Position numbers and translations under genes: made by a program. The notes below the pieces were generated by a model. The model made no database searches and was not told the DNA's origin. It was given only the letters and a program-made list of their open reading frames with translations. From Candidatus Aminicenantes bacterium (GTDB taxonomy: Bacteria; Acidobacteriota; Aminicenantia; Aminicenantales; JAFGBC01), in assembly GCA_963702005.1 (NCBI GenBank), contig OY969696.1, positions 2,528,001 to 2,592,000 of the forward strand: a stretch of 64,000 nucleotides of DNA, read 5' to 3'. This document shows positions 6,040 to 58,177 of the stretch, in pieces. Numbering within the stretch: the first letter of the stretch is position 1; each line of letters starts with the position of its first letter.

Positions 6040-6114
6040 TGTGTGTACCTCGATTGGTAGGATGGTCGATCGTTCGAACCGTTCTTCTATTCGATAGCAC
6101 AGGACCATAGCCAA

Positions 6115-6182
6115 GTCAACCCCTCGACACTCATAGAAGCCATGAGTACTGCAAGGCTGGGTAGCGTAGGCGAACGGGTCAA
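6115..6182 (-). repeat. Short variant of palindromic TGAC-bounded element (copy A)
   Basis: Minus strand TTGACCCGTTCGCCTACGC...GTCGAGGGGTTGAC shares both ends with the copies at 17340 and 46003; internal ACTCAT/ATGAGT hairpin. Confidence 0.75.
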
Positions 6183-6271
6183 GCTTGGTGGGCTTCACGC
6201 CCCCCATGAACATTCCGGGCCGAGATGCGTATAAAGAATGGGGACTACGACCGATCCCCAGGAGGTGCGTT

Positions 6272-6472
6272 ATGGCCAAGAGATTGTATCGCTCGACGAC
6301 CCATAAAATGCTGGGCGGCATCTGCGCCGGGCTGGCCAACTATTTCGACCTCGATATCTCCCTGATGCGGCTGATTTTCGTCGCGGTTGCCCTGGTCACG
6401 GCCCTGTTCCCGATGCTGCTCTTTTACATCATCGCCTGGATCGTCATTCCTTCCCAGCCCCAGGAGAACTGA
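6272..6472 (+). CDS. PspC domain membrane protein
   Basis: MAKRLYRSTTHKMLGGICAGLANYF...YIIAWIVIP; AGGAGG RBS. Confidence 0.92.
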   Translation: MAKRLYRSTTHKMLGGICAGLANYFDLDISLMRLIFVAVALVTALFPMLLFYIIAWIVIPSQPQEN

Positions 6473-6588
6473 CGAACCGCGATTATTATAGGGTATTTCA
6501 GATCCATTCTGTCGGCAGAGAAGGGGCTCACTCAATTGACTGAACCGTTCGTTCATAGTAGCATGGTGTCTGAAAGGAAGAGGGACCC

Positions 6589-7575: not shown

Positions 7576-7640
7576 GACAGTCCTTCATCCCTTCCGGTTG
7601 ACTTATCCGGGCTAATTTTGTATGGTTGAGGCAAAATTCG

Positions 7641-8321
7641 ATGACGACGAAGGCCCTGCGCGAGGAAATTCCCTATCGGCATATCGCCGTCGAGGGCGTC
7701 TTCAAGTCCGGCAAATCGAAGCTGGCTGGCCTGATCGCGCAGCGGCTGGGCGCCCGGGCCGCCCTCGACAAGACCGACAACCCCTACCTCAAGGATTTCT
7801 ACGATGAGAAAGAAGGGGCCTCCTTCCTGGCTCAGCTCGTCTTTCTCGTCAACCGCTACCACCAGCAGGCCCGTCTCGTTCAACGGGAGCTGTTCGAAGA
7901 CCGGATCGTCTGCGACTACCTGTTCGAGAAAGACAAAATCTACGCCTACCAGACCCTGACCGACGACGAGCTCGTCGTCTACGAGCGGATCTATACGATC
8001 CTCTCCGAGCGGGTCCCACGCCCCGATTTCGTCGTCTACCTCCAGATCTCGGTGCCGACACTCATCAAACGGATCGGCCGGGAAGGGAACCTTCTCGAGA
8101 AAAACGTCTCCGAGAAATATCTGGAGGACATCATCGAGGCCTACGATTATTTCTTTTTCAATTACCAGGCGACGCCGCTCCTGGTCGTCAAGGCCGACGA
8201 GCTGGATTTCAGCCGCGAAGAGGACGTCCTCGAGCTTCTGGACCAGGTCAAGCTGGTCAAAAAGAGCCCTCTTTTTTACGTGCCGTTGAGCCGTTCCAAC
8301 CGGAGTATTCCGAGGAGCTGA
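7641..8321 (+). CDS. Deoxynucleoside kinase family protein
   Basis: IAVEGVFKSGKS P-loop, NPYLKDFY, QLVFLVNRY; lies upstream of panB. Confidence 0.85.
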   Translation: MTTKALREEIPYRHIAVEGVFKSGKSKLAGLIAQRLGARAALDKTDNPYLKDFYDEKEGASFLAQLVFLVNRYHQQARLVQRELFEDRIVCDYLFEKDKIYAYQTLTDDELVVYERIYTILSERVPRPDFVVYLQISVPTLIKRIGREGNLLEKNVSEKYLEDIIEAYDYFFFNYQATPLLVVKADELDFSREEDVLELLDQVKLVKKSPLFYVPLSRSNRSIPRS

Positions 8322-11937: not shown

Positions 11938-16021
<4,084 letters not shown>

Positions 16022-16240
16022 TTGTCTATTTTTAACAAAAACACCCCGCCTTGTCAATTTGGCCGGGGGCCGGAGAAGGTATTCCGCCAAAAACCGCCCG
16101 ATCGGGTTGTATCCCTTTTTTAATTTTCCCGTGATAGTCGACCGAACGAGTCTCATATTCCTGCAGGAACTGCTTGAGATGATGGAACAGCACTCGATAG
16201 AGGACGGTCCGCGCCTAGGCTTACCTGAGCCCGTAAAATC

Positions 16241-16270
16241 TTGACAAAAGGCTTAATCTGTAAGCATAAT
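16241..16270 (+). promoter_or_regulatory. Putative sigma70 promoter of the LTA-synthase-family gene
   Basis: TTGACA-18bp-CATAAT. Confidence 0.5.
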
Positions 16271-16357
16271 CACCGAATAAGTCAAGGCGAGCAATGGAAA
16301 TGCCAGACAGTCATGTGACCAGCGGTGTCCGGTTTTGAAGCATGATAAGGGAAAAAA

Positions 16358-18529
16358 GTGTCAAAAGAAAAAACGGTTTTTCCTTTTGTGCTCATCACGT
16401 TCTCCATTTTCCTTCTATTCTTCCTCAGCATAAGAATTTATCTCGTTTATTCAGGAAATGTTCCAGGAAGCTTCTCGTTTTCTGAAGTCCTGGCCGGTTT
16501 CCTGGAAGATGTTTTTTTGGCTTCCGCCTTGTCTCTTTCAACCCTTCTGACGCTCTCCCTAAGCAAGGCCCTCTATCTTCTGCTCGTTTTTCCCCTGAAC
16601 TTGATCGTCGTCATAACCTGCTATGCAAACCTCCAGTATGTGAATTTTTTTGGAGAAAACCTCGCGTTGTTTGATCTTGAATATATCAGGAACCTCGGCA
16701 GCGTCTGGAAATTTTCGTTGAATCACATTTGGATTCGACGGGGAGAACCCTTCTTTCTCATCCTGCCCCTTTTAGCGATCTTGGCCGAGCTTGTTGTATT
16801 GCTGAAAACAAAGATCAGAAAATATCCGGCGGCGAAATTTCTGATTTTATCATCGGCCTTGCTCGGCCTTTCGCTAGCGACATTTTGGGGAGGAGAAGCC
16901 CTGGCCAATAAAGAGAATAAACTGGGTTTTCATCAGAACAATTATTTTGTGGAGATGATCAAGGGGATCCCTCGTCTTCGTAATTTCATCAAGGCTCGCC
17001 AGGATATCAAAAAGCTTAAAATAATAGCCAAGGAGCAAGAAACGAGCCCGGGTCATCAGGAGGCGTTGAATCACAATCACGAAGAATTGAGCCTGGGAAA
17101 ATTATATCTGAAGGAACGACCCGTCCCTCTTCCCGAGGATTATGTTTGGTATAGTGAAAATTATCCTTTTATCAAGATTCCCAGAAGAGACGCCGTCCGT
17201 ATGGGTCTTTTATCCGGAGGCGAAGAGGCCGATAGGACGGCCTTCCGCACTCCAACCAAGCTTGTCCGCAACGTTGTTTTTATTTTCATGGAAAGCTTCC
17301 GCTCCAAAGAGATCGACCTGTTTGGCAGCCCTTATTCTCTGACCCGTTCGCCGACGCTAAGCCCTGCCTTTCAAGGCGGGGATGAGAAGCGAGGCTCAGG
17401 GTTAACCCCTAACAAGCCCCGGCCTTCAAGCCGGGGAGTCGAGGGGTTGACTCCTAATTTTGACGCTCTAGCTTCTAAGGGTATTTTATTCAATAATTTT
17501 TATGGACATTCCGATTTAACCGCCGGCGCGGAGTTCTCAACGATATGTTCCTTCTATGAAGTCTTCAAAGGAATCGATGCCATGAGGGGTCATCCCCAGG
17601 ATGCCCTTTTTTCTTTGCCGGAAATATTGAGTCTCCTCGGATACACAAATTACTGGATCAATTCCTGGTCGGCCGATTTCGATAATTCCAGGAATTTTTT
17701 CAGCCTCCATGGCAATTTCCAGTTCGTCGATAAATATGCTTTTCCCCTGAATGCAGCGAAGGCGGGGGGGCATTATGATGATGAAGAAATTATGAAGATG
17801 GCCGTCGAAACTATGGATAAAGCCCGGAGACCGTTTTTTGCCATGATCTTGACGGCCACCAATCATATGCCCTACCGGGTGCCGGAAAAGAAATTTGAGC
17901 TCGGGCTGGGGGACGGTCTTTTCAGCCGCTATTTGGACACCTTTCATTATTCAGATTACGCCTTGGGCCGTTTTTTCGAGCTGGTTCGAAACAAAGATTA
18001 TTTCAAGAACACCCTTTTCTTTGTATTCGCGGACACGGGCGATAATCGATCGATCAAGGCCATGAAATCGCTCCCTGAGTACTTCGAGAATATTTATCAT
18101 ATTCCCCTTCTGATCTATGATCCTTCGGAGGAAACAGGAAGGGTCGTTAAGGAAATCGGCGGCCAGGTGGATATCGCTCCGACCGTTTTGGACCTGCTGG
18201 GGATACAAATCGCCACTCCTTTTGTCGGGCAAAGTCTGTTGCAGAAAAGAATGACTCCCTTTTATTTATCCTATCACGGCCGGGACAATCCCTCCGTATT
18301 TTTTTCTAGTGAATCTTTGCTCTTACGCTATAACCTTGAAAATGAACAGTGTGAGGCATTTGATCGGAAGAACGGCGAAAGAGTCGATTTAAGCCCGAGC
18401 GAACGCCAGAAAATTATTTCCACGATCAGGGAGATGGTCACATTGGGGGATTGGTCATTTTTTAATGACAAGATCTGGGATCCCAAAATCAATCAATTTT
18501 ACAAGAACCTCTATAAAAAAGGCTCCTAG
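16358..18529 (+). CDS. LTA synthase family / sulfatase-like membrane protein carrying a 36-aa in-frame insertion
   Basis: N-terminal TM segments, NVVFIFMESF, TPNFDALA, TATNHMPY, YSDYALG, QVDIAPTVL; AT-richer than flanks. Confidence 0.88.
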   Translation: MSKEKTVFPFVLITFSIFLLFFLSIRIYLVYSGNVPGSFSFSEVLAGFLEDVFLASALSLSTLLTLSLSKALYLLLVFPLNLIVVITCYANLQYVNFFGENLALFDLEYIRNLGSVWKFSLNHIWIRRGEPFFLILPLLAILAELVVLLKTKIRKYPAAKFLILSSALLGLSLATFWGGEALANKENKLGFHQNNYFVEMIKGIPRLRNFIKARQDIKKLKIIAKEQETSPGHQEALNHNHEELSLGKLYLKERPVPLPEDYVWYSENYPFIKIPRRDAVRMGLLSGGEEADRTAFRTPTKLVRNVVFIFMESFRSKEIDLFGSPYSLTRSPTLSPAFQGGDEKRGSGLTPNKPRPSSRGVEGLTPNFDALASKGILFNNFYGHSDLTAGAEFSTICSFYEVFKGIDAMRGHPQDALFSLPEILSLLGYTNYWINSWSADFDNSRNFFSLHGNFQFVDKYAFPLNAAKAGGHYDDEEIMKMAVETMDKARRPFFAMILTATNHMPYRVPEKKFELGLGDGLFSRYLDTFHYSDYALGRFFELVRNKDYFKNTLFFVFADTGDNRSIKAMKSLPEYFENIYHIPLLIYDPSEETGRVVKEIGGQVDIAPTVLDLLGIQIATPFVGQSLLQKRMTPFYLSYHGRDNPSVFFSSESLLLRYNLENEQCEAFDRKNGERVDLSPSERQKIISTIREMVTLGDWSFFNDKIWDPKINQFYKNLYKKGS
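17340..17451 (+). mobile_element. Non-autonomous palindromic element (IS200/IS605-type hairpins), copy B, in frame inside a CDS
   Basis: TGAC|CCGTTCGCCGACGC-AAGCCCTGCCTTTCAAGGCGGGG-...-AAGCCCCGGCCTTCAAGCCGGGG-AGTCGAGGGGTTGAC; near-identical to 46003-46114. Confidence 0.88.
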
Positions 18530-18556
18530 AGATTTCCGTTTTCAGGGAGGATTAGA

Positions 18557-19609
18557 GTGAAAACTTTGATAAGATTCCTGACCGTGGCCTTAATGGTTGC
18601 GGCCCTGGCCGCCCAGGACGTTCGGCCAATCCGCGATGATGTCGGCTTTTGCTGGAACCCGGCCAGCATGCAAAAGCTCGTGGACTATCTCCAGTGCGAG
18701 GAGAAAGAGAGCTATGAAGCCGAAGGACTGCTGGCCGCCATTGTTCCCCATGATGATTACCTCTACGCCGGCCGCGTGTACTATCCGCTGTATAAGGTTT
18801 TAAGGGCCAAGGAAGTCGTCATCTTCGGAGTTACCCACGCCACGGTCCGCAAGGAGATCGGCGACCCGCACAACATCCTGATCCTGGACGAGTTCAAGCT
18901 CTGGCAGGGCCTGAACGAGCCCCTCGCCATTTCCGAACTTCGGGAATACCTGAAGGAGCATCTGGATAAGTCGACTTATTTGGTCAACAACAAAGCCCAG
19001 ACCATCGAGCATTCGATCGAAGCTCAGGTCCCCTGGCTCCAATATTTCAACCCCGGCATCAAGATCACGCCGATCATGGTCACGGGCATGCCCTTCGAGA
19101 AAATGGACGAGGTCTCAACAAAGGTCGCAGAAGTCATCGCAACCTACCTTAAAGAGAAAGGACTCGTCGCGGGCAAAGATGTTTTCTTTTTGATCTCGTC
19201 CGACGGCAATCATTATGGCCAGGACTTCAACAACTCACCCTTCGGCGAGGGCGAGCTTGCCTGGAGAACGGCCCGGGAGCTCGACCAGAGGATCATCCGT
19301 GATTATCTGACGGGCATCATGGATAAGGGCAAGGTCGAGGGACTGACCAAGGAACTCTGGGGCAAGACCTATCTCGATTATCGCAACACCTACTGGTGCG
19401 GCAAATACTCGATACCCTTCGGCCTCCTGGCGACCCAGAAAATCATCAACCTGACTATGAACAAAAAAATCGGCGGAACGCTGTTCCGGTACTCCGATAC
19501 TTACAACGAGGGCGTGTTACCGCTGACAAAGACCGGAATGGGAACGACCGCGCCCTTCTCGCTGCGCCACTGGGTCAGCTTCTGTTCCATAGGATATTAT
19601 TTAGAGTAA
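18557..19609 (+). CDS. MEMO1 family / AmmeMemoRadiSam system protein B with signal peptide
   Basis: IVPHDDYLYAG, FGVTH, EHSIEAQVPWLQ, ISSDGNHYG, WCG. Confidence 0.85.
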   Translation: MKTLIRFLTVALMVAALAAQDVRPIRDDVGFCWNPASMQKLVDYLQCEEKESYEAEGLLAAIVPHDDYLYAGRVYYPLYKVLRAKEVVIFGVTHATVRKEIGDPHNILILDEFKLWQGLNEPLAISELREYLKEHLDKSTYLVNNKAQTIEHSIEAQVPWLQYFNPGIKITPIMVTGMPFEKMDEVSTKVAEVIATYLKEKGLVAGKDVFFLISSDGNHYGQDFNNSPFGEGELAWRTARELDQRIIRDYLTGIMDKGKVEGLTKELWGKTYLDYRNTYWCGKYSIPFGLLATQKIINLTMNKKIGGTLFRYSDTYNEGVLPLTKTGMGTTAPFSLRHWVSFCSIGYYLE

Positions 19610-19688
19610 AAAGCAAATTCCCGGTCGTACGCTTTCTCGGGTTGAAAAAGAATAAGCTGCCGGCTGAACGCAATAAAGGGATCAAAGA

Positions 19689-19760
19689 TTTGTCCTTTGT
19701 CGGGCTGGCCGTACTTCCCTATGAAGCGGCCAAGGCCGTTTGGTATCTTCTGAGCCTTTG
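19689..19760 (+). pseudogene. 72-bp orphan duplicate of an internal segment of the GT87 gene (22410-22481)
   Basis: Encodes FVGLAVLPYEAAKAVWYLLSLC versus FVGLAALPYEAAKAVWYLLSLC; about 5 mismatches by eye. Confidence 0.9.
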
Positions 19761-19884
19761 CCTCGATTTTTCAATTCGTTGACATTTCCAATCGGCCGAT
19801 AATATATTAGGAACGACTCAGGCAACCTGAATACCGAGTTCAAAGAGATGAATTTATTGCTATGATAAATCGGAGGAAACAGCG

Positions 19885-21006
19885 ATGAAAGTCCCATTTT
19901 ATGGTCACGTGAGACAGTACCAGAGCATCAAGAACGAAATTGATGCCAAAATACAGGATGTCATTATGAGCGGCCAGTTTGTGCAGGGCCCCATGCTGAA
20001 AAAGTTCGAAGAAGAGCTTGCGGCCTATGCAGGCGCCAAGTACGCCATCGGCGTCGGCAACGGCACCGATGCCCTCTGGCTCACCTTCATGGCTCTGGGC
20101 CTGGGCCAAGGCGATGAGCTGATTACCAACGCCAATACCTTCTTTGCGACCGCAGAAGCGATGTGGATCGCCGGTTGCAGCGCCGTGCTGGTTGACTGCG
20201 ACCCGAAGACCAAGTGCCTCGATCCGGAAGCGGCCCGAAAAGCGGTCAGCAAGCGCACCAAGGCCATCGTGCCGGTTCACCTGTATGGCCAGTGTGCTCC
20301 GATGCGCGAGATTCGCCGGATTGCCGACGAATACGGCCTGTTCATAGTCGAAGACAATGCTCAGGGCATTGACGCCCACGGCGACGACTTCAAGATCGGG
20401 GAGCTCTCAGATGCCGTCACCGTCAGCTTCATCATCCAGAAGAACCTGGGCACCTTCGGTGACGGCGGCGCGATCTGGACGAACCATAAGTCTATCGACG
20501 ATAAGGTCCGCAAATTGCGCAATCACGGCTCCGCTAAGCGGGACGTGCACAGCTATGGTTTCAACAGCCGTCTGGACGACCTGCACGCCGGTATCCTGAG
20601 CGCGAAGCTCAAACATATTAAAGAGTGGAGCGACCGCCGGATCGATATCGCCAACAAGTTCACAAGCGGCCTAAAGGACTGCGCCTTTCTCGACCTGCCG
20701 TACATCCGGCCGGGCTATCGCCATGTGTTCCACCTGTACGTGATCGAAACCAAGAATCCGGCCGATCGCGACAAGCTGCTAGACTGCCTGGTCAAGAACG
20801 GCATCGATGCCAAGACCCATTACTCCATCGCAATTCATCGTCAGGATGGTTTCCCCTGGGGCAAGGATGCGCGCCTGGCCGGACCCCTGACCCATGCGGA
20901 AAAGAACGCCGCCTCCTGCATTTCGCTGCCGATGTTCCCGGAATTGACGGAAGAGGAAATCCAGTACACTATCCAGGTCGTTCGCGACTGGGCCAAGAAC
21001 AAGTAA
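19885..21006 (+). CDS. DegT/DnrJ/EryC1/StrS PLP aminotransferase
   Basis: GVGNGTDAL, PVHLYGQ, EDNAQ, SFIIQKNLGTFGDGG, NSRLDDL. Confidence 0.93.
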   Translation: MKVPFYGHVRQYQSIKNEIDAKIQDVIMSGQFVQGPMLKKFEEELAAYAGAKYAIGVGNGTDALWLTFMALGLGQGDELITNANTFFATAEAMWIAGCSAVLVDCDPKTKCLDPEAARKAVSKRTKAIVPVHLYGQCAPMREIRRIADEYGLFIVEDNAQGIDAHGDDFKIGELSDAVTVSFIIQKNLGTFGDGGAIWTNHKSIDDKVRKLRNHGSAKRDVHSYGFNSRLDDLHAGILSAKLKHIKEWSDRRIDIANKFTSGLKDCAFLDLPYIRPGYRHVFHLYVIETKNPADRDKLLDCLVKNGIDAKTHYSIAIHRQDGFPWGKDARLAGPLTHAEKNAASCISLPMFPELTEEEIQYTIQVVRDWAKNK

Positions 21007-48713: not shown

Positions 48714-49265
48714 TCAACCTAGAAGAACCATCTTGGCTAGGAGGAGGAGGCCGACGGCGGCCGTCCCGGCTAAGGCCCTATATTCTTTGTTCCTGAGGTA
48801 CAGGCCCCAGCTGAACGCGACCTGGGAAGGGCCGGGGCGCCGTAGGGCCGGGAAAAATAAGGGGACTCGGCGGCGATAGTCGGCGTAGCCGTCGGGGAAA
48901 AGCTCCTTCATACGACGCCTTTCCTTAGCGATCGTCACGCTGTAGAAAACGAGAAAATAAGCCGCGAAGACGGCCAGGGCCGGCCAGGACCAGGCTCCAA
49001 TCGCAAGCCCGATTCCGAGGAGGAAGTTCCCCAGGTAGAGCGGATTCCGGGTCAATCCGTAAGGACCCGAAGTCGCCAGCTCCTTGTCCTTTTTAAGATA
49101 TCCCGAAGCCCAAGCGCGAATGAGAAGACCGCTGAGGCCGATAACGACGAAGGCCAGGAGGGAACGAGTATTGGGCGCGGCGAAGACGAGGGTCAGGATC
49201 AAGGCCGCCAATCCCGCCCGGACCCGGCACCGACAGATGAGCCGTTCGAATCTGCGCTCAGGCAT
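48714..49265 (-). CDS. ICMT/PEMT family membrane methyltransferase
   Basis: LATSGPYGLTRNPLYLGN, Y..YRRRVPLFFP. Confidence 0.88.
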   Translation of the reverse strand: MPERRFERLICRCRVRAGLAALILTLVFAAPNTRSLLAFVVIGLSGLLIRAWASGYLKKDKELATSGPYGLTRNPLYLGNFLLGIGLAIGAWSWPALAVFAAYFLVFYSVTIAKERRRMKELFPDGYADYRRRVPLFFPALRRPGPSQVAFSWGLYLRNKEYRALAGTAAVGLLLLAKMVLLG

Positions 49266-50244
49266 CGAGGCCGAGCCTTTCCAGGGCGAGCGAAGCCACG
49301 TCCTCCGAAGTTAGAATTTCGAGACAGCGGAGGTTTCGACACTCCCTCCGGTAGCAGAGGCTGCACTCCAAGCGTCGAAAGGCGACTCGGTCTTCGGGGC
49401 GGAAAGGGCCGTTGCGGGCCGGGTTGGTCGGTCCGAAGATCCCGACCACGGGCACGGACAGGGCGCAAGCGGCCTGGAGGGCGAACGTGTCGCCGCTGAT
49501 GAGAAGCGAGGCTGTCCGGATCAAAGCCATGACCTCGGGAAGAGTCAGATAGGGAACGAGCGGAACACCGGCCGCCCGGCCGACCGCGTCGGCGATCGTC
49601 TTTTCGTCCGCGTTTCCCCAAAGCAGGAGCACGGGCAGCCCCCGGGCTTTCAGCCGTTCGGCAACCCCGATCCATTTTTCCGGCCGCCAGCGCTTGCTCG
49701 CCCAGGCCGCCCCAGTGTTCAGAAGGACAAACGGACGGCCGGCGCGGAGGCCCAGCCCCCCGATCAAGGAGGAGATTTTGGCCGTGAGGGCGCGGGGAAA
49801 GACCAGGGGGAAATCGATGCGGTCGTCGTCGATCCCGATCGCTCTGAGCAGCCTCAGGTTCTTGAGGATGACGTGATCCTCTTCGGAGAGGGGATCGAGC
49901 CGCTCCGTGTAAAAAAGGCCCGCCAGAGGCTCCTTGAGGTTGACTCGGCTGAAACCGATCCGCCTTCGGCTGCGGGAGAGCCGGGAGATATAAGCCGACT
50001 TCAACAAGCCCTGGAAGTCCAGCGCGACCTGGTCCTTAAGCCGGACGCGGGTCCGCCAGCCGGGGCTTCCCAGGACGATGACCTCGTCGATCCCCGGGAC
50101 CAGGTCGAGGATAGCCCGGCCGCTCTTCCCGACGATCCAGGCGACCCGGGCCTTGGGCCGGTGGCGGCGCAAGGCGGCGAAGGCGGGCAACGTATGGATG
50201 ATATCTCCCAGCGAGCTGAGGCGGATGACGAGGTAGCTCTCCAT
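49258..50244 (-). CDS. waaC: LPS heptosyltransferase I-like (GT9)
   Basis: IRLSSLGDIIHTLP, DFQGLLKSA, ISGDT, IFGPT. Confidence 0.85.
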   Translation of the reverse strand: MESYLVIRLSSLGDIIHTLPAFAALRRHRPKARVAWIVGKSGRAILDLVPGIDEVIVLGSPGWRTRVRLKDQVALDFQGLLKSAYISRLSRSRRRIGFSRVNLKEPLAGLFYTERLDPLSEEDHVILKNLRLLRAIGIDDDRIDFPLVFPRALTAKISSLIGGLGLRAGRPFVLLNTGAAWASKRWRPEKWIGVAERLKARGLPVLLLWGNADEKTIADAVGRAAGVPLVPYLTLPEVMALIRTASLLISGDTFALQAACALSVPVVGIFGPTNPARNGPFRPEDRVAFRRLECSLCYRRECRNLRCLEILTSEDVASLALERLGLDA

Positions 50245-50247
50245 GCG

Positions 50248-50733
50248 TCAGCCCTTCCCGCCGGAAGCGATCCGCCCGATGATGTCCGTCGCGTTTCTGA
50301 TCTTGGGGCCGCCCGCAATGGCGATCCTGCCGCCATAGGCCTTGACCGTCGCCCGCTCCGGGACGGTTGCCCGGGTATAGTCGGATCCCTTGGCGTGGAC
50401 GTCCGGCTTGAGGGTGAGGAGGACCCTTTCGACATTGGGCTCATTAAAGATCGTGATGTAATCGACGGCGGACAAGGCGCTCAGGATCTCGGCGCGTTCG
50501 AGCTCGGAGAGAATCGGCCGGCCCCGGCCTTTGAGACGGCGGACCGAGGCGTCGCTGTTGAGGGCGACGACGAGGATGTCGCCCCGGCGCCGAGCGTCCT
50601 CGAGATAACGGACGTGCCCGGCATGGATGAGGTCGAAACAGCCGTTGGCCAGGATGATACGCAGGCCTTTTTTCTTGCAACGATCAACGATCCGGCTGAG
50701 CTCTTGCAGGGTTTTAAGTTTCTTCGGCTTCAA
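50248..50733 (-). CDS. rfaE2: Heptose 1-phosphate adenylyltransferase (RfaE domain II)
   Basis: ANGCFDLIHAGHVRYL, LNSDASVRRLKG.GRP, KGSDY. Confidence 0.92.
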   Translation of the reverse strand: MKPKKLKTLQELSRIVDRCKKKGLRIILANGCFDLIHAGHVRYLEDARRRGDILVVALNSDASVRRLKGRGRPILSELERAEILSALSAVDYITIFNEPNVERVLLTLKPDVHAKGSDYTRATVPERATVKAYGGRIAIAGGPKIRNATDIIGRIASGGKG

Positions 50734-51731
50734 GAGCGTATTGCGCCTCGGAGTTCGTCGGGGGACACGGTCGCCGTCCCTTTTTTCATGACGACGAGGC
50801 CGCCCGCGGCGTTGGCGAGGAGGGCGGCATGCCGGAAGCTCGCCCCGGCGGCCAGGGACAGGGTGAAAACGCTGATGACCGTGTCGCCGGCGCCGGTGAC
50901 GTCCACGATATCGGTCGTGCCCCGGACGGGGATGAATAGGGCGGGCTTTCCTTTCTCGAAGAGAGCCATCCCTTTCGACCCGCGCGTAATGAGCAGGGCG
51001 GGGGAGCGGAGCCTGTCGAGAAGGAGCCTGCCCGCGTTCCGAACCGAGGACGGGTCGTCCCCGACCGGACGATTCAGGGCGGCTTCGACCTCGGGCTCGT
51101 TGGGAGTCGCGGCCGTGACGCCGGGGAAACGGAGGAGGCGGAAGCGGGAGTCGAGAAGAACGGCCCGGCCGGCCCGCTTAAAAGCGGAAAGGGCCGACTT
51201 GAACACGTCCTCCTGGACCGTCCGGTAGTTATAATCGGAGATGATGAGGGCGCCGCAGCTCCCGGCCAGTCCGCGCAACGAGGCTGCGAGCTTCCGCTTC
51301 AAAGCGGCGGCGTCCGGGACATAGGCTTCGCGGTCGATCCTCAGGATTTGTTGTTTTCGGGTGTTGTCCTCGCCGGCCAGGATTCGGGTTTTGATCGGCG
51401 TCGCACAGGCTTTATCGCGGGAAAGGCAGGAGGCGGAGATGTGTTGGCTCTTAAGGAGCGCAAGAATCTGGGAGGCGGCTTCGTCGTCGCCGAGGACTCC
51501 GACCGGGATCGGGTTCGCGCCCAGGGCCTTGAGGTTCTGGAGGGTGTTTCCGGCTCCCCCGAGCAGATACTCCCGTTTCCGGAAGGAAAGGATAAGGACG
51601 GGCGCTTCCCTAGAAATACGGCGGGTGCTTCCGTAAACATATTCGTCCAGAATGTAATCGCCCCAGACGGCGATCTTGCGGCCGCGAAATCCGTCGATGA
51701 TGGAGAGGAGGACATCCTTATCGTATGTCAT
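50730..51731 (-). CDS. rfaE1: Heptose 7-phosphate kinase (RfaE domain I, PfkB family)
   Basis: RISREAPV, ISDY, TPNEPE, DVTGAGDTV. Confidence 0.92.
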   Translation of the reverse strand: MTYDKDVLLSIIDGFRGRKIAVWGDYILDEYVYGSTRRISREAPVLILSFRKREYLLGGAGNTLQNLKALGANPIPVGVLGDDEAASQILALLKSQHISASCLSRDKACATPIKTRILAGEDNTRKQQILRIDREAYVPDAAALKRKLAASLRGLAGSCGALIISDYNYRTVQEDVFKSALSAFKRAGRAVLLDSRFRLLRFPGVTAATPNEPEVEAALNRPVGDDPSSVRNAGRLLLDRLRSPALLITRGSKGMALFEKGKPALFIPVRGTTDIVDVTGAGDTVISVFTLSLAAGASFRHAALLANAAGGLVVMKKGTATVSPDELRGAIRS

Positions 51732-51869
51732 GGCCGATTAGAAAGAATATTTATCAGAAACGGCCTAAAAAGGCAAACAGGGACGGTCGACGTCAATACT
51801 TTCTGCACAATTACTTGTGCATTTTCATTTTAACGAAGGAAAGAAAACGGAAGACGTTATTGAAAGTAA

Positions 51870-52460
51870 AGATCCCCGCGGCAAGCCGCGGGGCATTAGG
51901 AGCGCAGCTTCAAGGCCAGCTGCGCAGGCCCTTGCTCCAGTTCTCGGTGACTGACGATGTACTTCGCGATCACATCCCTCGTCATCCGGTCTCCGACCGT
52001 CCTTGCGAAATATCCGTCCTCCCACACTTCCCCGCCCCATAGCTTCTTTTTCAAGCCCGCAAACTCGCGAAACAACCCCCTCCCACTCATGCTCTTTATG
52101 ATCCTGACGACCTCCCCGATCGATCGCGATGGCGGAAATGATACTAGCAAATGAATATGATCTTCGGTAATTTCCATCTCGATGATTTCAATATCGTACG
52201 ATTCGCAAATCTCTCCCATGATCTGTTTCGCTCGTTCCCGGACTTCCACCCGCTCGAATATCTTCTTCCGGTACTTCGGACACCAGACCAGATGGTAGGA
52301 CGTGTCGTAGACCGAATGACTCGTCCGTTTCAGCGTCACCCATATACTTTACCACACTCCCGAGCAAGGGCCTTTGTGGATAAGGGGGACTTTCCGGTCC
52401 CCCTGATCACCCCCTCGGCAAGGCATACATTCCACCCCGTGGCAAGCCACGGGGCAGCCT
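51870..52460 (-). mobile_element. IS200-type element (tnpA only, no tnpB); ends approximate
   Basis: Subterminal hairpins CCCCGCGG-CAAG-CCGCGGGG (51874-51893) and CCCCGTGG-CAAG-CCACGGGG (52435-52454) flank tnpA; extra hairpin at 52383-52404. Confidence 0.88.
51896..52339 (-). CDS. tnpA: IS200/IS605 family Y1 transposase
   Basis: YHLVWCPKYRK, EDHIHLL HUH motif, WEDGYF, KYI catalytic Tyr. Confidence 0.96.
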   Translation of the reverse strand: MTLKRTSHSVYDTSYHLVWCPKYRKKIFERVEVRERAKQIMGEICESYDIEIIEMEITEDHIHLLVSFPPSRSIGEVVRIIKSMSGRGLFREFAGLKKKLWGGEVWEDGYFARTVGDRMTRDVIAKYIVSHRELEQGPAQLALKLRS

Positions 52461-52509
52461 GTAAAGCTTTCGTGCAATCGGATTAGTATGATAATGAATT
52501 CCTGTCCGA

Positions 52510-53136
52510 TTATTTCACCTTGATGATGAAATTCACGGCGGCGTTCTTGGGCCTGGTTTCTTCTCCCGCGTTGAGCCGCGATTTGGTGTTATATCTTATC
52601 GCGCCTAATATATTCGCCTTCGCCGAGGTGGTGTTATATACATTCGTGCCTTGCCAGACCGACGTTCCTGATCCTGTATCAGCAATATCAACATACGCAG
52701 CCAAACCAGCGAAGGTGTGAATATGCTCCGTCTGGTCGTGCGTATGATTCTGCAGCGAATCTTCTTGCACGGACCCGACGCCCGTCGCGCTTCCGCCGGG
52801 CTTGGACGGCGCCCTCTTCTTGACGTCCGGGTCCCGGCCGCTCCCGGCGTCGTCGCCCCGCAGGAATCTTCCTCGGAGATCCGGCAGGTAGAACGTGTAG
52901 CCGCTCCCCCCCCAGCGTCTCCCGATAACCGCATAGAGGTCCTTATAAACAGCCGTGTTCATCGCCTTGCCGTCGCACAGCATCCAGCCTGCGGGAACCG
53001 ATTTTGCTTCTCCAGCCCAGGCGATGATCGTCCCCACCGGTAGCGAATCGCTGGCCGCCCTCGCCGGAGCCATGATTCCTACGGCGCCCACAGCCGACAA
53101 CATTGATAGAACGCCGGCCAATACTAAGTTCTTCAT
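52510..53136 (-). CDS. Signal-peptide tail-collar domain protein, array copy 1
   Basis: ARA cleavage site, PVGTIIAW, GWMLCDG, Y.DLYAVIG, F.LPDLRGRFLRG, HTH..HIH, ETRPKNAAVNFIIK. Confidence 0.92.
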   Translation of the reverse strand: MKNLVLAGVLSMLSAVGAVGIMAPARAASDSLPVGTIIAWAGEAKSVPAGWMLCDGKAMNTAVYKDLYAVIGRRWGGSGYTFYLPDLRGRFLRGDDAGSGRDPDVKKRAPSKPGGSATGVGSVQEDSLQNHTHDQTEHIHTFAGLAAYVDIADTGSGTSVWQGTNVYNTTSAKANILGAIRYNTKSRLNAGEETRPKNAAVNFIIKVK

Positions 53137-53246
53137 AGCTAGCCCTCCTTACAAAAACAGGATAAGCCGGATAAGGATTCCCATTTCAATCACGTCCGCC
53201 CGCAATCCACACTTCAGGTCGAATGCTCATCCTGCTTCTTGGGACA

Positions 53247-53275
53247 AAGATAAATCCCTGTCCTGGATATGTCAA
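53247..53275 (-). promoter_or_regulatory. Putative sigma70 promoter of array copy 1
   Basis: TTGACA-17bp-TATCTT. Confidence 0.7.
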
Positions 53276-53317
53276 GGATAGGGGAAGAGAGGTCGGGTTG
53301 CTCGGCGATCGTCCGCG

Positions 53318-53400
53318 GGGAGTCCGATGCGGTCAGGGAAGGCCCGGACCTATGCGGATCGGGCGCTTCCGATCACGAGCGGGACGGGCAAGCCCGAAGC
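53318..53400 (-). repeat. Conserved downstream spacer after copy 2, repeated at 54132-54213
   Basis: GCCCGGACCTATGCGGATCGGGCGCTTCCGATCACGAGCGGGACGGGCAAGCC is identical in both; contains a GATCGG/CCGATC hairpin. Confidence 0.9.
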
Positions 53401-54038
53401 TATTTCACCTTGATGATGAAATTCACGGCGGCGTTTTTCGGGCGCGTTTCTTCTCCCGCGTTGACTCGCGATTTGGTGCCGTACTTAATCGCGCCCATGA
53501 TATTTGCAGAGGCCGAGTCTGTATTGGTGTAGCTGCTCGTCCACGAATTCATGTTGACCGCATAATAGCCTGACGCTGATGTAGTCGCCCCAAAAGAGGA
53601 GGTATATCTCCCATACATATGCTGATGGGGAGTTTGCTCATGCGCATGGTTTTGCAGCGAATCCTCCTCGACCGAACCGACTCCCGTGGCGCTGCCGCCA
53701 GGATTGGAGGGCATTCGCTTCTTCACATCAGGGTCACGGCCCGTTCCGGCATCGTCCCCCCGGAGGAACCTTCCCCTCAGGTCGGGCAGGTTGAACTTAT
53801 CGCCTGCGCTTCCCCATGACGTTCCGATGGCCGTGAAGAGTTCTTTATAGACCGATTTGCTCAGAGCCTTCCCGTTGCACAGCATCCAGCCAGCCGGAAC
53901 GGAACTCGATGTTCCGCACCAGGCGATGACAGTGCCCACCGGAAGCGAGTCACCGGCAGCGCGCGCTGGCGCCATGATTACTGCGATGCCCATAATTAAT
54001 AACGAAGATAGAACCCCTACCAATAGCAACTTTTTCAT
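53400..54038 (-). CDS. Signal-peptide tail-collar domain protein, array copy 2
   Basis: Same architecture as copy 1; start MKKLLL at 54038. Confidence 0.92.
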   Translation of the reverse strand: MKKLLLVGVLSSLLIMGIAVIMAPARAAGDSLPVGTVIAWCGTSSSVPAGWMLCNGKALSKSVYKELFTAIGTSWGSAGDKFNLPDLRGRFLRGDDAGTGRDPDVKKRMPSNPGGSATGVGSVEEDSLQNHAHEQTPHQHMYGRYTSSFGATTSASGYYAVNMNSWTSSYTNTDSASANIMGAIKYGTKSRVNAGEETRPKNAAVNFIIKVK

Positions 54039-54068
54039 TGAGCCCTCCACAATCCACAATCTGGGACA

Positions 54069-54097
54069 AGAATATGTGCCATCTTAGGAGATGTCAA
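54069..54097 (-). promoter_or_regulatory. Putative sigma70 promoter of array copy 2
   Basis: TTGACA-17bp-TATTCT. Confidence 0.7.
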
Positions 54098-54131
54098 GGA
54101 CGAAGGGATGATAGGTTGGCGGCCGCCCGTA

Positions 54132-54213
54132 GGGAGTCCGATGAGGCCGAGGAAAGCCCGGACCTATGCGGATCGGGCGCTTCCGATCACGAGCGGGACG
54201 GGCAAGCCTGGAG
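54132..54213 (-). repeat. Conserved downstream spacer after copy 3
   Basis: Near-identical to 53318-53400. Confidence 0.9.
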
Positions 54214-54843
54214 CTATTTTACCTTGATGATGAAATTGACTGCGGTGTTCTTGGGACGGGTTTCCTCTCCGGCGCTGACCGCTGATTTTGTATTGTATCT
54301 ATTTGCGCCGAGGATATTCGCGTTCGAAGAAGTCGAGGTTAGATGTTTCGTATTCGTCCCTTTGATCCAAGTCCCACTTCCAGTATCGGCAATTTGAAAG
54401 ATATTGTACTCGAAAAGGTAATCATGGGTATGGGGAGTTTGGTCATGTGAATGGTTTTGCAGCGAATCCGCTTGAACGGAGCCGACACCGGTCGTATTGC
54501 CGCCCGGATTGGACGGAACCCTTTTATTCGCGTCGGGGTCACGGCCCGTTCCAGCATCGTCGCCCCGGAGGAATCGCCCCCTCAGGTCGGGCAGGTTGAA
54601 CTTATCGCCCGCGCTTCCCCAAGATGTCCCGATAGCCGTGAAGAGTTCTTTATAGACCGATTTGTTCAGAGCTTTGCCGTTGCATAGCATCCAGTTGGCT
54701 GGCACGGAGCTCGATGGACCGCCCCAGGCGATGATGGTGCCCACGGGCAGCGAATTGTCCGTCGCCCTTGTTGGGGCCATGATACCCACCGCGCCCACAG
54801 CCGACAACGTTGATAGAACGCCGGCCAATACTATGTTCTTCAT
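54214..54843 (-). CDS. Signal-peptide tail-collar domain protein, array copy 3
   Basis: Same architecture; AGGAGG RBS. Confidence 0.92.
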   Translation of the reverse strand: MKNIVLAGVLSTLSAVGAVGIMAPTRATDNSLPVGTIIAWGGPSSSVPANWMLCNGKALNKSVYKELFTAIGTSWGSAGDKFNLPDLRGRFLRGDDAGTGRDPDANKRVPSNPGGNTTGVGSVQADSLQNHSHDQTPHTHDYLFEYNIFQIADTGSGTWIKGTNTKHLTSTSSNANILGANRYNTKSAVSAGEETRPKNTAVNFIIKVK

Positions 54844-54946
54844 AGCTATCCCTCCTTATAAAAACAGGATAAGCCGGATAAGGATTCCCTTTTCAACCGC
54901 ATCCGCCCGCAATCCAGGTCGTTTTCGCATCCTGCGAACTAAGACA

Positions 54947-54975
54947 AGCATAAGGACCGGCTTGGTAGGTGTCAA
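54947..54975 (-). promoter_or_regulatory. Putative sigma70 promoter of array copy 3
   Basis: TTGACA-17bp-TATGCT. Confidence 0.7.
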
Positions 54976-55062
54976 GGACGGCGGGAAGAGAGGCCGGGAC
55001 AGGATATTCTCAAGTTGCACGAAACAATAAAATCGCATATATTTTTAGAGCTTCGACCGGGT

Positions 55063-55104
55063 GCCGGAGTGGCGGAACTGGCAGACGCGCTGGAATAAAA
55101 ATTC
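55063..55104 (+). pseudogene. 5' half of tRNA-Leu (duplicate), with duplicated upstream promoter region 54970-55062
   Basis: GCCGGAGTGGCGGAACTGGCAGACGCGCTGGA matches 57012-57043 with 1 mismatch; anticodon arm degenerate; 3' half absent. Confidence 0.9.
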
Positions 55105-55211
55105 CTTCGTCGTTGATGCGGGGCGATGGCGAAAATTTATTTATTCAAGGCCCGGGCCGGAAAATCCGGGCGATTCTGAGCGCAAGCGGGACGAAATTAA
55201 AAGGGGGGATT

Positions 55212-55841
55212 CTATTTCACCTTGATGATGAAATTCACGCTCGCGTTCTTGGGACGGGTTTCCTCTCCGGTTTTGACCTGAGACTTTGTTTTATACGTTT
55301 TCGCGCCCATGATGTACGCAGTACTCGGGAGGCCACTCCTTTCAGTGGACGGGTTAGGTCGCATGAACTGCCAATCTAGCCCCGCCTGGGCATTCGCGCT
55401 GTAATTATGGTCCTCGAAATTATGGCTATGCGGGGCCTGATCATGCGTATGGTTTTGCATCATGTCATCTTGGACCGATCCGACGCCCGTCGCGCTGCCG
55501 CCCGGATTGCAGGGCTTGCGATTCTTTGCATCGGGATCCCGGTGCGTTCCGGCATCCTCGCCCCGGAGGAATCTTCCTCTGAGGTCCGGCAGGTTGAACT
55601 TATCGTCTGCGCTTCCCCATGACGTTCCGATGGCCGTGAAGAGTTCTTTATAGACCGATTTGCTCAGAGCCTTCCCGTTGCATAGCATCCAGTTTGCTGG
55701 AACGGAGCTTGATACGCCGCCCCAGGCGATGATGGTGCCCACTGGCATTCCATCGTCGGTCGCCCTCGCCGGTGCCATAATGCCTACGGCGCCCACAGCC
55801 GACAACATTGAAAGAATCCCCGCCAACACGAAATTTTTCAT
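55212..55841 (-). CDS. Signal-peptide tail-collar domain protein, array copy 4
   Basis: Same architecture; different upstream leader. Confidence 0.92.
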   Translation of the reverse strand: MKNFVLAGILSMLSAVGAVGIMAPARATDDGMPVGTIIAWGGVSSSVPANWMLCNGKALSKSVYKELFTAIGTSWGSADDKFNLPDLRGRFLRGEDAGTHRDPDAKNRKPCNPGGSATGVGSVQDDMMQNHTHDQAPHSHNFEDHNYSANAQAGLDWQFMRPNPSTERSGLPSTAYIMGAKTYKTKSQVKTGEETRPKNASVNFIIKVK

Positions 55842-56178
55842 CGCTTTCCCTCCTTATATATAGAGATATTTTTGAAATTGGACCCATTTTCCGCAAGCCG
55901 GGATGTCCGAAGGCGGCAGCTTGCGAAGAGCCATAGCTTTCAAAAACGGCACAGAACTATTTCTCCGTTTTGCTAAAACCAACCCCGATATAAATATGTT
56001 ATATACTCAGCTGATGATCGAAATCAACAAAAGACAAATACCTCATTCGGACCGTTTTTGGTAATGCTTATCCGTTTACCGAAATTGCCCTCCTTCTTGG
56101 GAACGGGGATTAGCGTCACCTTGAGCAATCGTTCCCCCTTGGGGCGACGCAGATGAATAAAGTGGGGTTGTCCTTCGT

Positions 56179-56805
56179 TCATCTCACCTTGATGATGAAA
56201 TTCACGGCCGCGTTCTTGGGGCGGGATTCTTCTCCCGCCTTGATTTCTGAGCTGGTTTTGTATTTTATTGCGCCGAATAATTCCGGTTGGGCCCATGTCG
56301 TGGTTCGAGCGCCTTCAGTAGCCCAGGCGAACAAATAATCATTACCTAAATCTGCTTTAGCGTAGCCATCATAATGTTGATAATTATGGTTATGTCGATT
56401 CTGATAGTGCGAATGCTCTTGAATGGAATCCTCTTGCACCGAGCCGACGCCTGTCGCGCTGCCGCCGGGATTGGAAGGCTTCCGCTTTTTCACATCGGGG
56501 TCGCGGCCCGTCCCGCCATCATCACCCCGAAGGAACCTCCCCCTTAGGTCAGGCAGGTTGAATTTATCGCCGGAACTTCCCCACGAGGTTCCGATGGCAG
56601 CGAAAAGGTCTTTATAGACTGTTTTGTTTAGCGCTCTGCCGTTGCACAACATCCAGCTCGTCGGGATGGAGCTTGTCTCCCCGCCCCAAGCGATGATGGT
56701 GCCCACGGGCAGCGAATTGTCCGTCGCCCTTGTTGGGGCCATGATACCCACCGCGCCCACAGCCGACAACATTGATAGAACGCCGGCCAATGCTAAGTTC
56801 TTCAT
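56179..56805 (-). CDS. Signal-peptide tail-collar domain protein, array copy 5
   Basis: Same architecture; ends ESRPKNAAVNFIIKVR. Confidence 0.92.
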   Translation of the reverse strand: MKNLALAGVLSMLSAVGAVGIMAPTRATDNSLPVGTIIAWGGETSSIPTSWMLCNGRALNKTVYKDLFAAIGTSWGSSGDKFNLPDLRGRFLRGDDGGTGRDPDVKKRKPSNPGGSATGVGSVQEDSIQEHSHYQNRHNHNYQHYDGYAKADLGNDYLFAWATEGARTTTWAQPELFGAIKYKTSSEIKAGEESRPKNAAVNFIIKVR

Positions 56806-56895
56806 AGCTAACCCTCCTTATTAGGATTCCCTTTTCAACCGCGTCTACCCGCAATCCGTAATTCAGATCGATTTTCCATCTTGCTACTTGGGACA

Positions 56896-56924
56896 AAGAT
56901 AAATCCCTGTTCTGGATATGTCAA
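56896..56924 (-). promoter_or_regulatory. Putative sigma70 promoter of array copy 5
   Basis: TTGACA-17bp-TATCTT, nearly identical to the copy 1 promoter. Confidence 0.7.
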
Positions 56925-57011
56925 GAACGACGGGATGAGAGGTCGGGACAGGATATTCTCAAGTTGCGCGAAATGATAAAATCGCATATATTTTTAGAGC
57001 TTTGACCGGGT

Positions 57012-57100
57012 GCCGGAGTGGCGGAAATGGCAGACGCGCTGGACTCAAAATCCAGTCCGGGGCGACTCGGGTGTGGGTTCGATTCCCTCCTCCGGCACCA
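57012..57100 (+). tRNA. tRNA-Leu(CAA)
   Basis: GCCGGAG/CTCCGGC acceptor stem, CTGGA-CTCAAAA-TCCAG anticodon arm, long variable arm, GGTTCGATTCC, encoded CCA. Confidence 0.97.
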
Positions 57101-57121
57101 TATGTTGCGAGGAGGGTTTGA

Positions 57122-58177
57122 ATGAACTTTGCGCGGGTCGCGCTGGCGGCCGCGGCGTTTTGCGCCGCCTGCGCCACGGCGAGCGCGCCCGCGGCGGCGC
57201 CCAAGGGCCCGCTCCCTGCCTTCCAGAAAGGGATCGCCTACACCGGCTATTCGAGCGGAGCCTACGAGGGCGAGGGAGCGCGCCGGGCCGTGAAGGACCT
57301 AGCGGCGACGAACGCTCGCTGGATCCAGGTCCTCGTCACGGGCTATCAAGACACGATCAAGTCCACCTTTATAACCCGGACGGGGAAAGAGACGCCTACG
57401 GACTCTTCCCTGACCGGGATCATCCGCTACGCCAAAAGCCTCGGCCTGAAGGTTTTTCTGAAGCCCCACGTCGACCTTCTCCTCGACCCCACCCGCTGGA
57501 GGGGGGAGATCGGCCTGGGATTCACGGAAGCGGAGTGGGATCTCTGGTTCTTGTCCTACCGGGCTTTCCTAGTCCATTATGCCCTCATGGCCGAGAGCTT
57601 GGGCGTGGAAATGTTCTGCGCCGGCTGCGAGCTCGATTCGACCGTCGGCCGCGTCGAGGATTGGCGCCGGACGATCGGCGCCGTTCGGACCGTTTACAAA
57701 GGCCGATTGACCTACGCCGACGATCAGATCGAGCAAGATCCGGATGCCGTCCAGTGGTGGAACGCCCTGGACTTCATTGGCATGGACGCCTACCCGACGC
57801 TGACCGACAAGCTCCATCCGACCGTCGAAGACTTCAGCTCGGGCTGGTCCCGCTACATCGCGGAGCTGCGCGCGCTCGCGCGCCGATGGCGGAAGCCCCT
57901 GATCCTGACCGAGATCGGCTACCGGAGCGTCCAGGGCGGCGCCCAGAATCCCTGGGATTGGCAGCGTACGGGGCCGGTCGATCTGGAGGTCCAGGCCAAC
58001 GCCTATGAGGCGGCTTTCGGGGCGGTCCAGGGAGAGGATTGGCTCCGGGGCATGTATTGGTGGCAGTGGTCGCCCGACCCGGACGAGGGCGGGACCGGTG
58101 ACACCGGATATACCCCTCACGGCAAGCCGGCCGAGAAGGTCCTGACGGCCCGTTATAAACGGGCCTTCCTGCGATAG
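57122..58177 (+). CDS. Exported glycoside hydrolase family 113-like protein
   Basis: LKVFLKPHVD, WRGEIG, GCEL, WWNALDFIGMDAYP.L, TEIGYRS; possible lipobox CAAC. Confidence 0.85.
   Translation: MNFARVALAAAAFCAACATASAPAAAPKGPLPAFQKGIAYTGYSSGAYEGEGARRAVKDLAATNARWIQVLVTGYQDTIKSTFITRTGKETPTDSSLTGIIRYAKSLGLKVFLKPHVDLLLDPTRWRGEIGLGFTEAEWDLWFLSYRAFLVHYALMAESLGVEMFCAGCELDSTVGRVEDWRRTIGAVRTVYKGRLTYADDQIEQDPDAVQWWNALDFIGMDAYPTLTDKLHPTVEDFSSGWSRYIAELRALARRWRKPLILTEIGYRSVQGGAQNPWDWQRTGPVDLEVQANAYEAAFGAVQGEDWLRGMYWWQWSPDPDEGGTGDTGYTPHGKPAEKVLTARYKRAFLR

Follow-up and report, generated by a model that had tools for sequence, protein, structure and literature searches.

Within a 64-kb window of the genome of a Candidatus Aminicenantes bacterium (contig OY969696.1, positions 2,528,001 to 2,592,000), we examined a tandem array of five genes whose products look like the bare receptor-binding tip of a phage tail fiber behind an export signal. 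The host genome is one closed 4.31-Mb contig, and coordinates below refer to the window unless they are marked C1. Together with a pair of genes and a single gene elsewhere in the genome, the array probably encodes an exported repertoire of trimeric binding proteins that have exchangeable inserts and are carried on mobile islets, a reading that we hold at a probability of about 60%. Sequence comparison supports the view that the genes are cellular copies of a phage fiber receptor-binding tip that are intact, selected and signal-bearing.

Eight signal-bearing copies of a fiber tip

A first-pass annotation of the window had described five co-oriented paralogs of ~208-212 aa that share one layout, and all five open reading frames (ORFs) indeed lie on the minus strand where it placed them (Table 1). 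A2 to A5 are 61-69% identical to A1, and the mean column identity in an alignment of the five is 78%. The start of A2 was taken as the ATG; the listed TTG at 54059 would add 7 codons. The collar domain that had been recognized by eye was confirmed with profiles, as all five proteins match Pfam Collar (PF07484) at 67-69 bits, where the cut-off is 24. Invariant in all five are LPDLRGRFLRG, H131, H133, Q135, H138 and H140, and also two C-terminal stretches, E-E-x-R-P-K-N (x = T/S) and V-N-F-I-I-K-V, separated by two residues that vary. NCBIfam assigned 0 families to the five proteins, and a search of the ESM Atlas returned generic Collar clusters only.

Across the genome, eight copies pass the PF07484 cut-off: the array of five, a pair ~150 kb away and a single copy ~790 kb away. 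All eight are intact, 208-212 aa long and of the same layout, and no long fiber gene is found among the Collar matches of this closed genome.

Each copy begins with M-K-(N/K), followed by ~20 mostly hydrophobic residues (4-23), Pro24 and A/T-R-A at positions -3 to -1, so that the N-terminal shape proposed in the first-pass annotation (Lys2, a hydrophobic run, Pro24, A/T-R-A) is present as described. A lipobox cysteine is absent from all eight N-termini. The signal segment is under purifying selection (dN/dS 0.18), and by a crude hydrophobicity rule its shape is retained in 57 of 64 close metagenome homologs. From these features we predict Sec-type export of the mature protein. The collar begins within ~6 residues of the signal-like N-terminus, and the mature length is ~181 aa.

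Among 120 homologs of comparable length, 88 likewise have a hydrophobic N-terminus, and some of these show a lipoprotein-like box, although this screen was crude. Several of these proteins (P0068, P0071, P0080, P0081 and P0087; 224-248 aa) have a hydrophobic start that ends in a lipobox-like V-A-C-G, which suggests lipoprotein-anchored versions of the same tip.

The mature protein resembles the end of T4 gp12 and is predicted to form a trimer

In a five-member profile, residues 28-209, which are everything after the hydrophobic N-terminus, align end to end with residues 337-526 of the 527 residues of gp12 (E 2e-17 to 1.5e-15), and the C-terminal strand is matched through the last residue. H131 and H133 fall on gp12 His445 and His447, reported as Zn ligands (PMC3004832). 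The match to the PHROG family 'tail collar fiber protein' (E 1e-33 to 1e-36) spans positions 482-638 of a profile of 673, so only the fiber end is covered. A second invariant HxH, seven residues past the first, has no gp12 counterpart and presumably recalls the HxH ladder of gp37.

We used A3 for the fold, the trimer and the searches. Its AlphaFold monomer model is mediocre (pLDDT 68.7), as expected because the fold is that of an intertwined trimer; the best Foldseek matches of this model are gp12, the needle tip of gp37 and the fiber of cyanophage A-1(L). The first-pass annotation had proposed modeling of the homotrimer, and here the prediction was positive. Folding residues 29-209 in triplicate with an alignment of 79 rows gave a score of 0.89, compared to 0.00 for the best of 3 controls. 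This mark was attained by 20 of 30 proteins solved as one-chain pairs and by 1 of 23 solved single chains. Contact agreement among the runs was at least 66% and the partner pLDDT at least 86. The predicted interface takes in most of residues 128-204, as an intertwined fold would give, and we regard the homotrimer as predicted with high confidence.

In gp37, the collar is reported to consist of residues 811-860 plus the last residues 1016-1026, with the receptor-binding part between them (PMC12724248). The collar here consists of residues 33-92 plus the last strand, and a variable insert (141-180) lies midway along the path that the chain takes out from the collar and back. Because this topology parallels that of gp37, whose collar ends flank the receptor-binding part, the insert would form the distal face.

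Purifying selection on the scaffold and exchange of the insert

Selection was measured on all 28 pairings among the eight paralogs. For signal, collar and C-terminus, dN/dS is 0.12-0.18 at a dS of 0.7-1.1, with a scaffold identity of 78-80%. Such low ratios at this synonymous divergence indicate old duplicates that have been kept functional. In the insert, mean pairwise identity is 20%, changes are saturated and pN/pS is 0.77. The strong divergence of this segment had been noted before, but its length is about 38-43 aa (residues ~141-180) rather than the 33-37 aa given then.

Clustering at 45% identity sorts the inserts of 61 close-family proteins into 42 clusters, and several of these inserts are found on other scaffolds. 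The A1 insert is 95% identical to that of metagenome protein P0010 (scaffolds 75%), the A3 insert 88% identical to that of P0002 (scaffolds 81%) and the single copy shares its insert with P0006 at 100% identity (scaffolds 92%). By these comparisons the inserts appear to be discrete classes, some of them common to different genomes regardless of scaffold. The term 'hypervariable', used in the first-pass annotation, is thus misleading, as the classes are conserved across genomes and moved by recombination. The movement is visible at the DNA level between A3 and a gene carried by metagenome contig L024: synonymous divergence is 0.59 for the scaffold but 0.22 for the insert, and third-codon identity is 35/40 in the insert and 78/142 elsewhere (Fisher p 1.7e-4). 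This contrast argues that the insert was swapped by recombination.

We found no sign of programmed diversification by a shufflon, silent cassettes or a diversity-generating retroelement, in that 51500-57400 contains 0 inverted repeats and the genome no partial silent copies, although a reverse transcriptase was not searched for. A tblastn search of the genome gives 8 full copies, and all other matches have E ≥0.5.

A conserved upstream unit

An upstream unit of ~140 nt is common, in part or in full, to seven of the eight copies. It contains a strong promoter-like TTGACA-17-TAT(C/G/T)(T/C)T, which matches 10/12 consensus positions and precedes 4/5 array genes, and a leader of ~100 nt that is common to six of the eight genes. 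A 38-nt promoter stretch (≤2 differences) lies upstream of five of the eight genes and has no other occurrence in the genome. The same motif recurs with 1 mismatch upstream of the homolog on metagenome contig L023, whose protein is only 66% identical; positions 4836-4972 of that contig are the counterpart of the whole promoter-plus-leader unit. Promoter and leader are far better conserved than the synonymous sites of the downstream genes.

A search of 51800-57300 with Rfam gave no family apart from tRNA, and a consensus fold of 7 leaders had compensatory changes in 0/19 pairs. With neither a family nor covariation, the leader is conserved yet without evidence of RNA structure, and the upstream unit may be a protein-binding regulatory site.

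Table 1. Features of the array and of its borders
Feature	Position in window	Strand	Remarks
IS200/IS605-family Y1 transposase	51896..52339	-	array boundary opposite tRNA-Leu
Paralog A1 (208 aa)	52510..53136	-	signal-like N-terminus 1-27, collar, HxH pair, variable insert ~52600-52716, conserved C-terminal strand
A1 upstream unit	53137..53275	-	promoter-like TTGACA-17-TATCTT (10/12), ~100-nt leader, GGAGGG ribosome-binding site
Paralog A2 (212 aa from ATG)	53400..54038	-	variable insert ~53490-53618
A2 upstream unit, shortened	54039..54097	-	promoter-like site 10/12; leader mostly deleted
Paralog A3 (209 aa)	54214..54843	-	signal codons 54763-54843; variable insert ~54304-54423
A3 upstream unit	54844..54975	-	promoter-like site 10/12; leader conserved
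Duplicate of the A5-to-tRNA-Leu intergenic region	54907..55102	.	82% identical; takes in ~40 nt of the 5' part of tRNA-Leu
Paralog A4 (209 aa)	55212..55841	-	variable insert ~55302-55421; only array member without the shared promoter and leader
Paralog A5 (208 aa)	56179..56805	-	variable insert ~56269-56385
A5 upstream unit	56806..56924	-	exact 38-nt promoter motif; 20-nt deletion in leader
tRNA-Leu(caa)	57012..57100	+	divergent from A5; bounds array

Carriage on small integrative islets

All three loci bear scars of integrative elements. The pair occupies a 1.9-kb segment between exact 48-bp copies of the 3' end of tRNA-Arg, which contains the two collar genes and nothing else. The same 48-bp repeat and the tRNA-Arg gene bound an adjoining 12.9-kb island that encodes a primase-helicase, a RusA-like resolvase, a terminase-large-subunit-like gene and a tyrosine integrase; this island looks like a satellite, because it has no capsid match. 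At tRNA-Arg(acg), outside the window (C1:2723217-2738194), three exact 48-bp repeats thus delimit two neighboring segments. The region upstream of the single copy contains 55 bp that repeat the 3' part of tRNA-His exactly; the tRNA-His gene itself is 430 kb distant. The array has tRNA-Leu on one side, an IS200 transposase on the other and an internal 82% duplicate that includes part of the tRNA, which is a scar of the segmental duplication that built the array.

The islets have a GC content of 53-56%, compared to 60.4% for the genome. In the array, G+C is 0.53-0.56 per 2-kb bin against ~0.61 in the surroundings, and 0.541 overall against a genome mean of 0.604. Judging from these borders and this composition, the collar family travels on small low-GC integrative islets bounded by tRNA or att fragments.

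The first-pass annotation had called the array phage-free, with capsid, baseplate, sheath, integrase and lysis genes all absent from the window, and this holds across the window ORFs that we scanned. Pfam or NCBIfam scans covered 51 ORFs (in one scan, 13/42 were without a family), and the matches are to housekeeping and carbohydrate genes plus the one IS200 transposase. Sheath, Baseplate_J and HK97 capsid families have no match anywhere in the closed genome. For the genome, however, the term does not stand, as the pair adjoins a phage-derived integrase island. The window is therefore phage-free, yet the family is mobile, since integrative-element scars mark every locus.

At C1:1789899-1792093 (positions 5900-8094 of locus L010), a full tRNA-Glu(ctc) and a shorter second copy flank a 2.1-kb segment whose one 560-aa ORF matches neither a Pfam nor a PHROG family; the segment lies ~0.9 kb from the single collar gene and looks like another small att-bounded insertion. 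The DNA is also present in 11 sequencing runs of 5 studies (small shares, 0.05-0.11), which are labeled freshwater sediment or wetland metagenomes and are too few to assign a habitat. No RNA data set was listed for the array, which speaks neither for nor against expression. Contigs came from 4 of the 11 runs and are short, with many stretches uncovered. One contig of run X1 joins the start of A5 to the body of A1 with 0 mismatches (53083/56753), skipping 3669 bases over a shared 39-base stretch, and contigs of runs X2 and X3 (~92% alike) join the A1 upstream region to the tRNA-like fragment (53269/54970), skipping 1700 bases. These joints hint that the copy number of the array may differ among populations; the X1 joint could be an assembly artifact across the repeat.

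A patchy distribution

The survey of related genomes suggested in the first-pass annotation turned up no close copy. Among 60 relatives of the same order, 2 of them of the same genus, there was no match at E ≤1e-10, and of 400 phylum-wide genomes 4 had distant matches only (best 5e-29, where the copies of this genome reach 1e-124). In species-representative genomes, a pattern scan picked up 11 loci at 31-42% identity. Close relatives, at 47-77% identity, are known from metagenomes only.

Viral sequences are more distant. Viral contigs do not exceed 50% identity across almost the full module (two contigs, residues 31-207, 49-50%), and two short matches of 26 and 66 residues have 54% and 49% identity. 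None of the 1707 matching phage records reaches 60% identity, and the best phage match has 37-41%. In proteins of 367-2000 aa, the best local match is ≤56% identical, and identity is 29-47% over 96-99% of the module. The module as such is widespread: 81,877 clusters (50% identity) match the profile at E ≤0.001, and 4,794 do so at E ≤1e-30. Many representatives of 500-560 aa (P0124-P0269) carry three to six module stretches per chain and may be single-chain pseudo-trimers.

Relation to known systems

The proteins share with the C-terminal domain of gp12 (PDB 1OCY, 1PDI, 5IV5) an end-to-end alignment, an HxH on the Zn ligands and a final ETRP-N...IIKVK strand. They differ in that identity is only ~25-30%, the shaft and the baseplate-binding part are replaced by a Sec-type signal, a second HxH is invariant, and the genes are chromosomal, multi-copy and preceded by their own promoter. 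A virion fiber would have an N-terminal shaft or attachment part and would lie in a tail module, whereas the mature protein here starts at the collar and the window has no phage structural genes.

The closest named cellular relative that we found is RhiB, which is 36% identical over residues 16-209 (E 5e-29). RhiB is encoded in the quorum-regulated rhiABC operon of Rhizobium leguminosarum (PMC13133039, PMC3328848), its collar domain was noted in a survey of Rhizobium quorum sensing (PMC13133039), and MrpB of Microcystis is described as highly similar to it (PMC3328848). This likeness presumably explains why close homologs of our proteins bear the JGI name 'microcystin-dependent protein'. RhiB and MrpB (COG4675) are likewise small cellular, non-phage proteins with a collar-plus-head module. 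Unlike the eight copies here, RhiB has no hydrophobic N-terminus. It sits with rhiA and rhiC. Here there are no partner genes beside the paralogs, the tRNA and IS200 (no sequence search for rhiA was made), and the eight paralogs have swapped inserts.

In function, the nearest analog may be the MAT repertoire of Bdellovibrio bacteriovorus, reported as 21 signal-bearing, trimeric, surface-displayed fibers with diverse phage-like tips, one of which binds a prey glycan (Caulton et al. 2024, PMC10769870). Tip swapping is proposed in that paper, and many MATs carry an S74 chaperone-protease (PMC10769870). Both systems are cellular repertoires of signal-bearing trimers (predicted here) with swapped tips. 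In contrast, a MAT has a ~130-aa domain after the signal and a long fiber, while our proteins are a tip only, of 181 mature residues. They are of the collar/HxH type, and the word 'collar' occurs 0 times in PMC10769870.

For the virophage DSLV2, three collar proteins encoded in succession are reported to assemble into a heterotrimer that binds LPS (lipopolysaccharide; PMC12724248). Its tandem genes for ~200-250 aa with a collar and a variable head resemble the array, and similar triple arrays occur in viral contigs. The DSLV2 proteins, however, belong to the virion, lack a signal peptide and are reported to be heterotrimeric. Finally, a collar paralog group of Candidatus Solibacter usitatus Ellin6076 is reported with a positive codon-based selection statistic (Z 3.70; PMC3174227). 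As acidobacterial chromosomal collar paralogs these are alike by description, sequences not having been compared, but the available part of PMC3174227 mentions neither an export signal nor insert exchange.

We found no literature description of exported, tip-only collar proteins that consist of a signal and a bare tip. The earlier suggestion of an undescribed system may hold for this bare form. It goes too far for the family, which has named cellular relatives in RhiB and MrpB and an analogous repertoire in MAT.

How the proteins might act

We propose that each gene yields a small exported protein that is the bare receptor-binding tip of a phage fiber, with a Sec-type signal in place of the shaft. 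The ~181 mature residues would form a gp12-like intertwined homotrimer in which the chain runs from the collar through the head and returns with its final strand to the collar, and the HxH motifs would make one or two metal sites on the threefold axis. The ~40-residue head insert would set ligand specificity. We infer that the ligand is most likely a surface glycan, such as LPS or exopolysaccharide, by analogy with phage and virophage relatives. The eight copies would then be a set of different specificities, most of them transcribed from their own conserved promoter and leader, which diversify by insert swaps between scaffolds and are carried on low-GC islets bounded by tRNA or att fragments. 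Because the mature protein has neither an anchor nor a shaft, we picture the trimer as a soluble coat or mask on its target glycan rather than as a tethering adhesin.

Several points weigh against this proposal. The hydrophobic stretch of ~20 residues could be an uncleaved membrane anchor. The organism is probably a diderm, since LPS heptose genes adjoin the array, and Sec export alone in an LPS-bearing diderm reaches the periplasm only, with no route to the surface shown. The positive trimer prediction may come from the model's memory, because gp12 trimers have already been solved, and in the best trimer model insert residues 151-180 contact other chains, which leaves the exposure of the insert unproven. 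T4 gp12 requires a folding chaperone, and none is evident here. Insert exchange was seen in 1/6 metagenome genes for which DNA was available, and the inserts of the other five have no close partner in this genome. A search for the A3-type insert (residues 128-192) in proteins of 367-2000 aa gave 27 candidates, none at E ≤0.01, which is weak evidence. PADLOC returned 0 families for 3/5 paralogs and 3 neighbors.

What remains of the repertoire of receptor-binding trimers put forward in the first-pass annotation is a set of intact, selected, signal-bearing tips that differ mainly in the insert and are predicted to trimerize; the appendage role and the label 'hypervariable' do not. We rejected interchangeable tips for an appendage, as the mature protein starts at the collar and lacks an attachment domain, and sheath and baseplate genes are absent from the genome.

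The role that we tentatively favor, at odds well short of even, is a moron-like masking of the cell's own phage receptors. We prefer it because the proteins have no anchor or shaft, and because their own promoter, the islets, the low G+C, the patchy spread and the inserts exchanged between lineages fit such a role. In its fullest form, which is speculative, this would be a mobile immunity repertoire in which anchor-less tips saturate the cell's receptors, or are shed as decoys, and exclude the phages that use them, with new specificities gained by insert swap. If true, it would be a defense built from the phage's own key that acts before adsorption and is absent from defense catalogs.

Ranking close behind, provided that some anchor exists, is a role as MAT-like recognition or adhesion lectins, in which surface-held trimers would bind glycans of foreign cells or polymers through a partner or an uncleaved helix. 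It has a precedent in the 21 signal-bearing trimeric fibers reported to bind prey glycans (PMC10769870), COG4675 proteins are reported as abundant in soil metaproteomes (PMC5579227), the operon of RhiB is described as rhizosphere-expressed and quorum-controlled, and glycoside hydrolase genes neighbor two of the loci. However, the mature protein lacks the ~130-aa anchor domain and the shaft, a free trimer has a single binding face and cannot link two surfaces, and the distribution is patchy and tied to mobile elements. We consider this role possible but doubtful.

Instead of homotrimers, the paralogs might co-assemble into heterotrimers with combinatorial tips, as reported for DSLV2 (PMC12724248). 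Scaffold interfaces are ~79% identical among the paralogs, many proteins of 500-560 aa have several module copies per chain, and triple arrays of signal-less relatives are common in metagenome contigs. But the three loci carry 5, 2 and 1 copies, none of them a multiple of three, seven close-family metagenome contigs have one copy each, most genes have their own promoter, and it was the homotrimer that was predicted, at 0.89 versus 0.00. We therefore hold co-assembly to be improbable.

Antagonistic binding proteins, which after secretion would harm or block competitors by binding an essential surface component, have an analog in lectin-like bacteriocins. Anchor-less exported binding modules, a large pool of insert classes exchanged between lineages and carriage on mobile islets would all suit them, but with no toxic domain, no immunity gene and no identified secretion route across the outer membrane this reading is quite unlikely. 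Very unlikely are decaying prophage or satellite remnants, a possibility raised in the first-pass annotation, in which the genes would be leftover 3' ends of tail-fiber genes with no present function: integrative-element scars mark all three loci, one of which adjoins the primase-helicase/RusA/TerL-like/integrase island, and the array is low in GC and flanked by IS200, but all 8 genes are intact at a dN/dS of 0.12-0.18 despite a dS of ~1, the signal is kept in 57/64 close homologs, promoter and leader outdo synonymous sites in conservation, no close long fiber exists (best local match ≤55%, near-whole module ≤47%), and phage matches are 37-41% at best (1707 records <60%).

The cellular collar proteins RhiB, MrpB and COG4675 have gone without an explained function for decades, though they are abundant in soil proteomes. 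The genes described here are their simplest form so far, a signal and a bare tip in eight versions, with selection, their own promoter, mobile carriage and insert exchange. Small soluble trimers would be a tractable entry point to the function of the family, and since exported forms look common in the crude screen (88/120), an answer obtained here could apply widely.

Other features of the window

LPS inner-core genes at 49258-51731 (heptosyltransferase I and two HldE halves as separate genes) adjoin the array, with only the IS200 transposase gene between. In T4, gp12 binds the LPS core; the nearness of these genes to the array may be chance. A G+C trough at 16001-20000 (0.465-0.496, compared to ~0.61) contains genes for a sulfatase-family membrane protein (16358-18529) and a Memo-like protein (18557-19609), and is probably a separately acquired segment.

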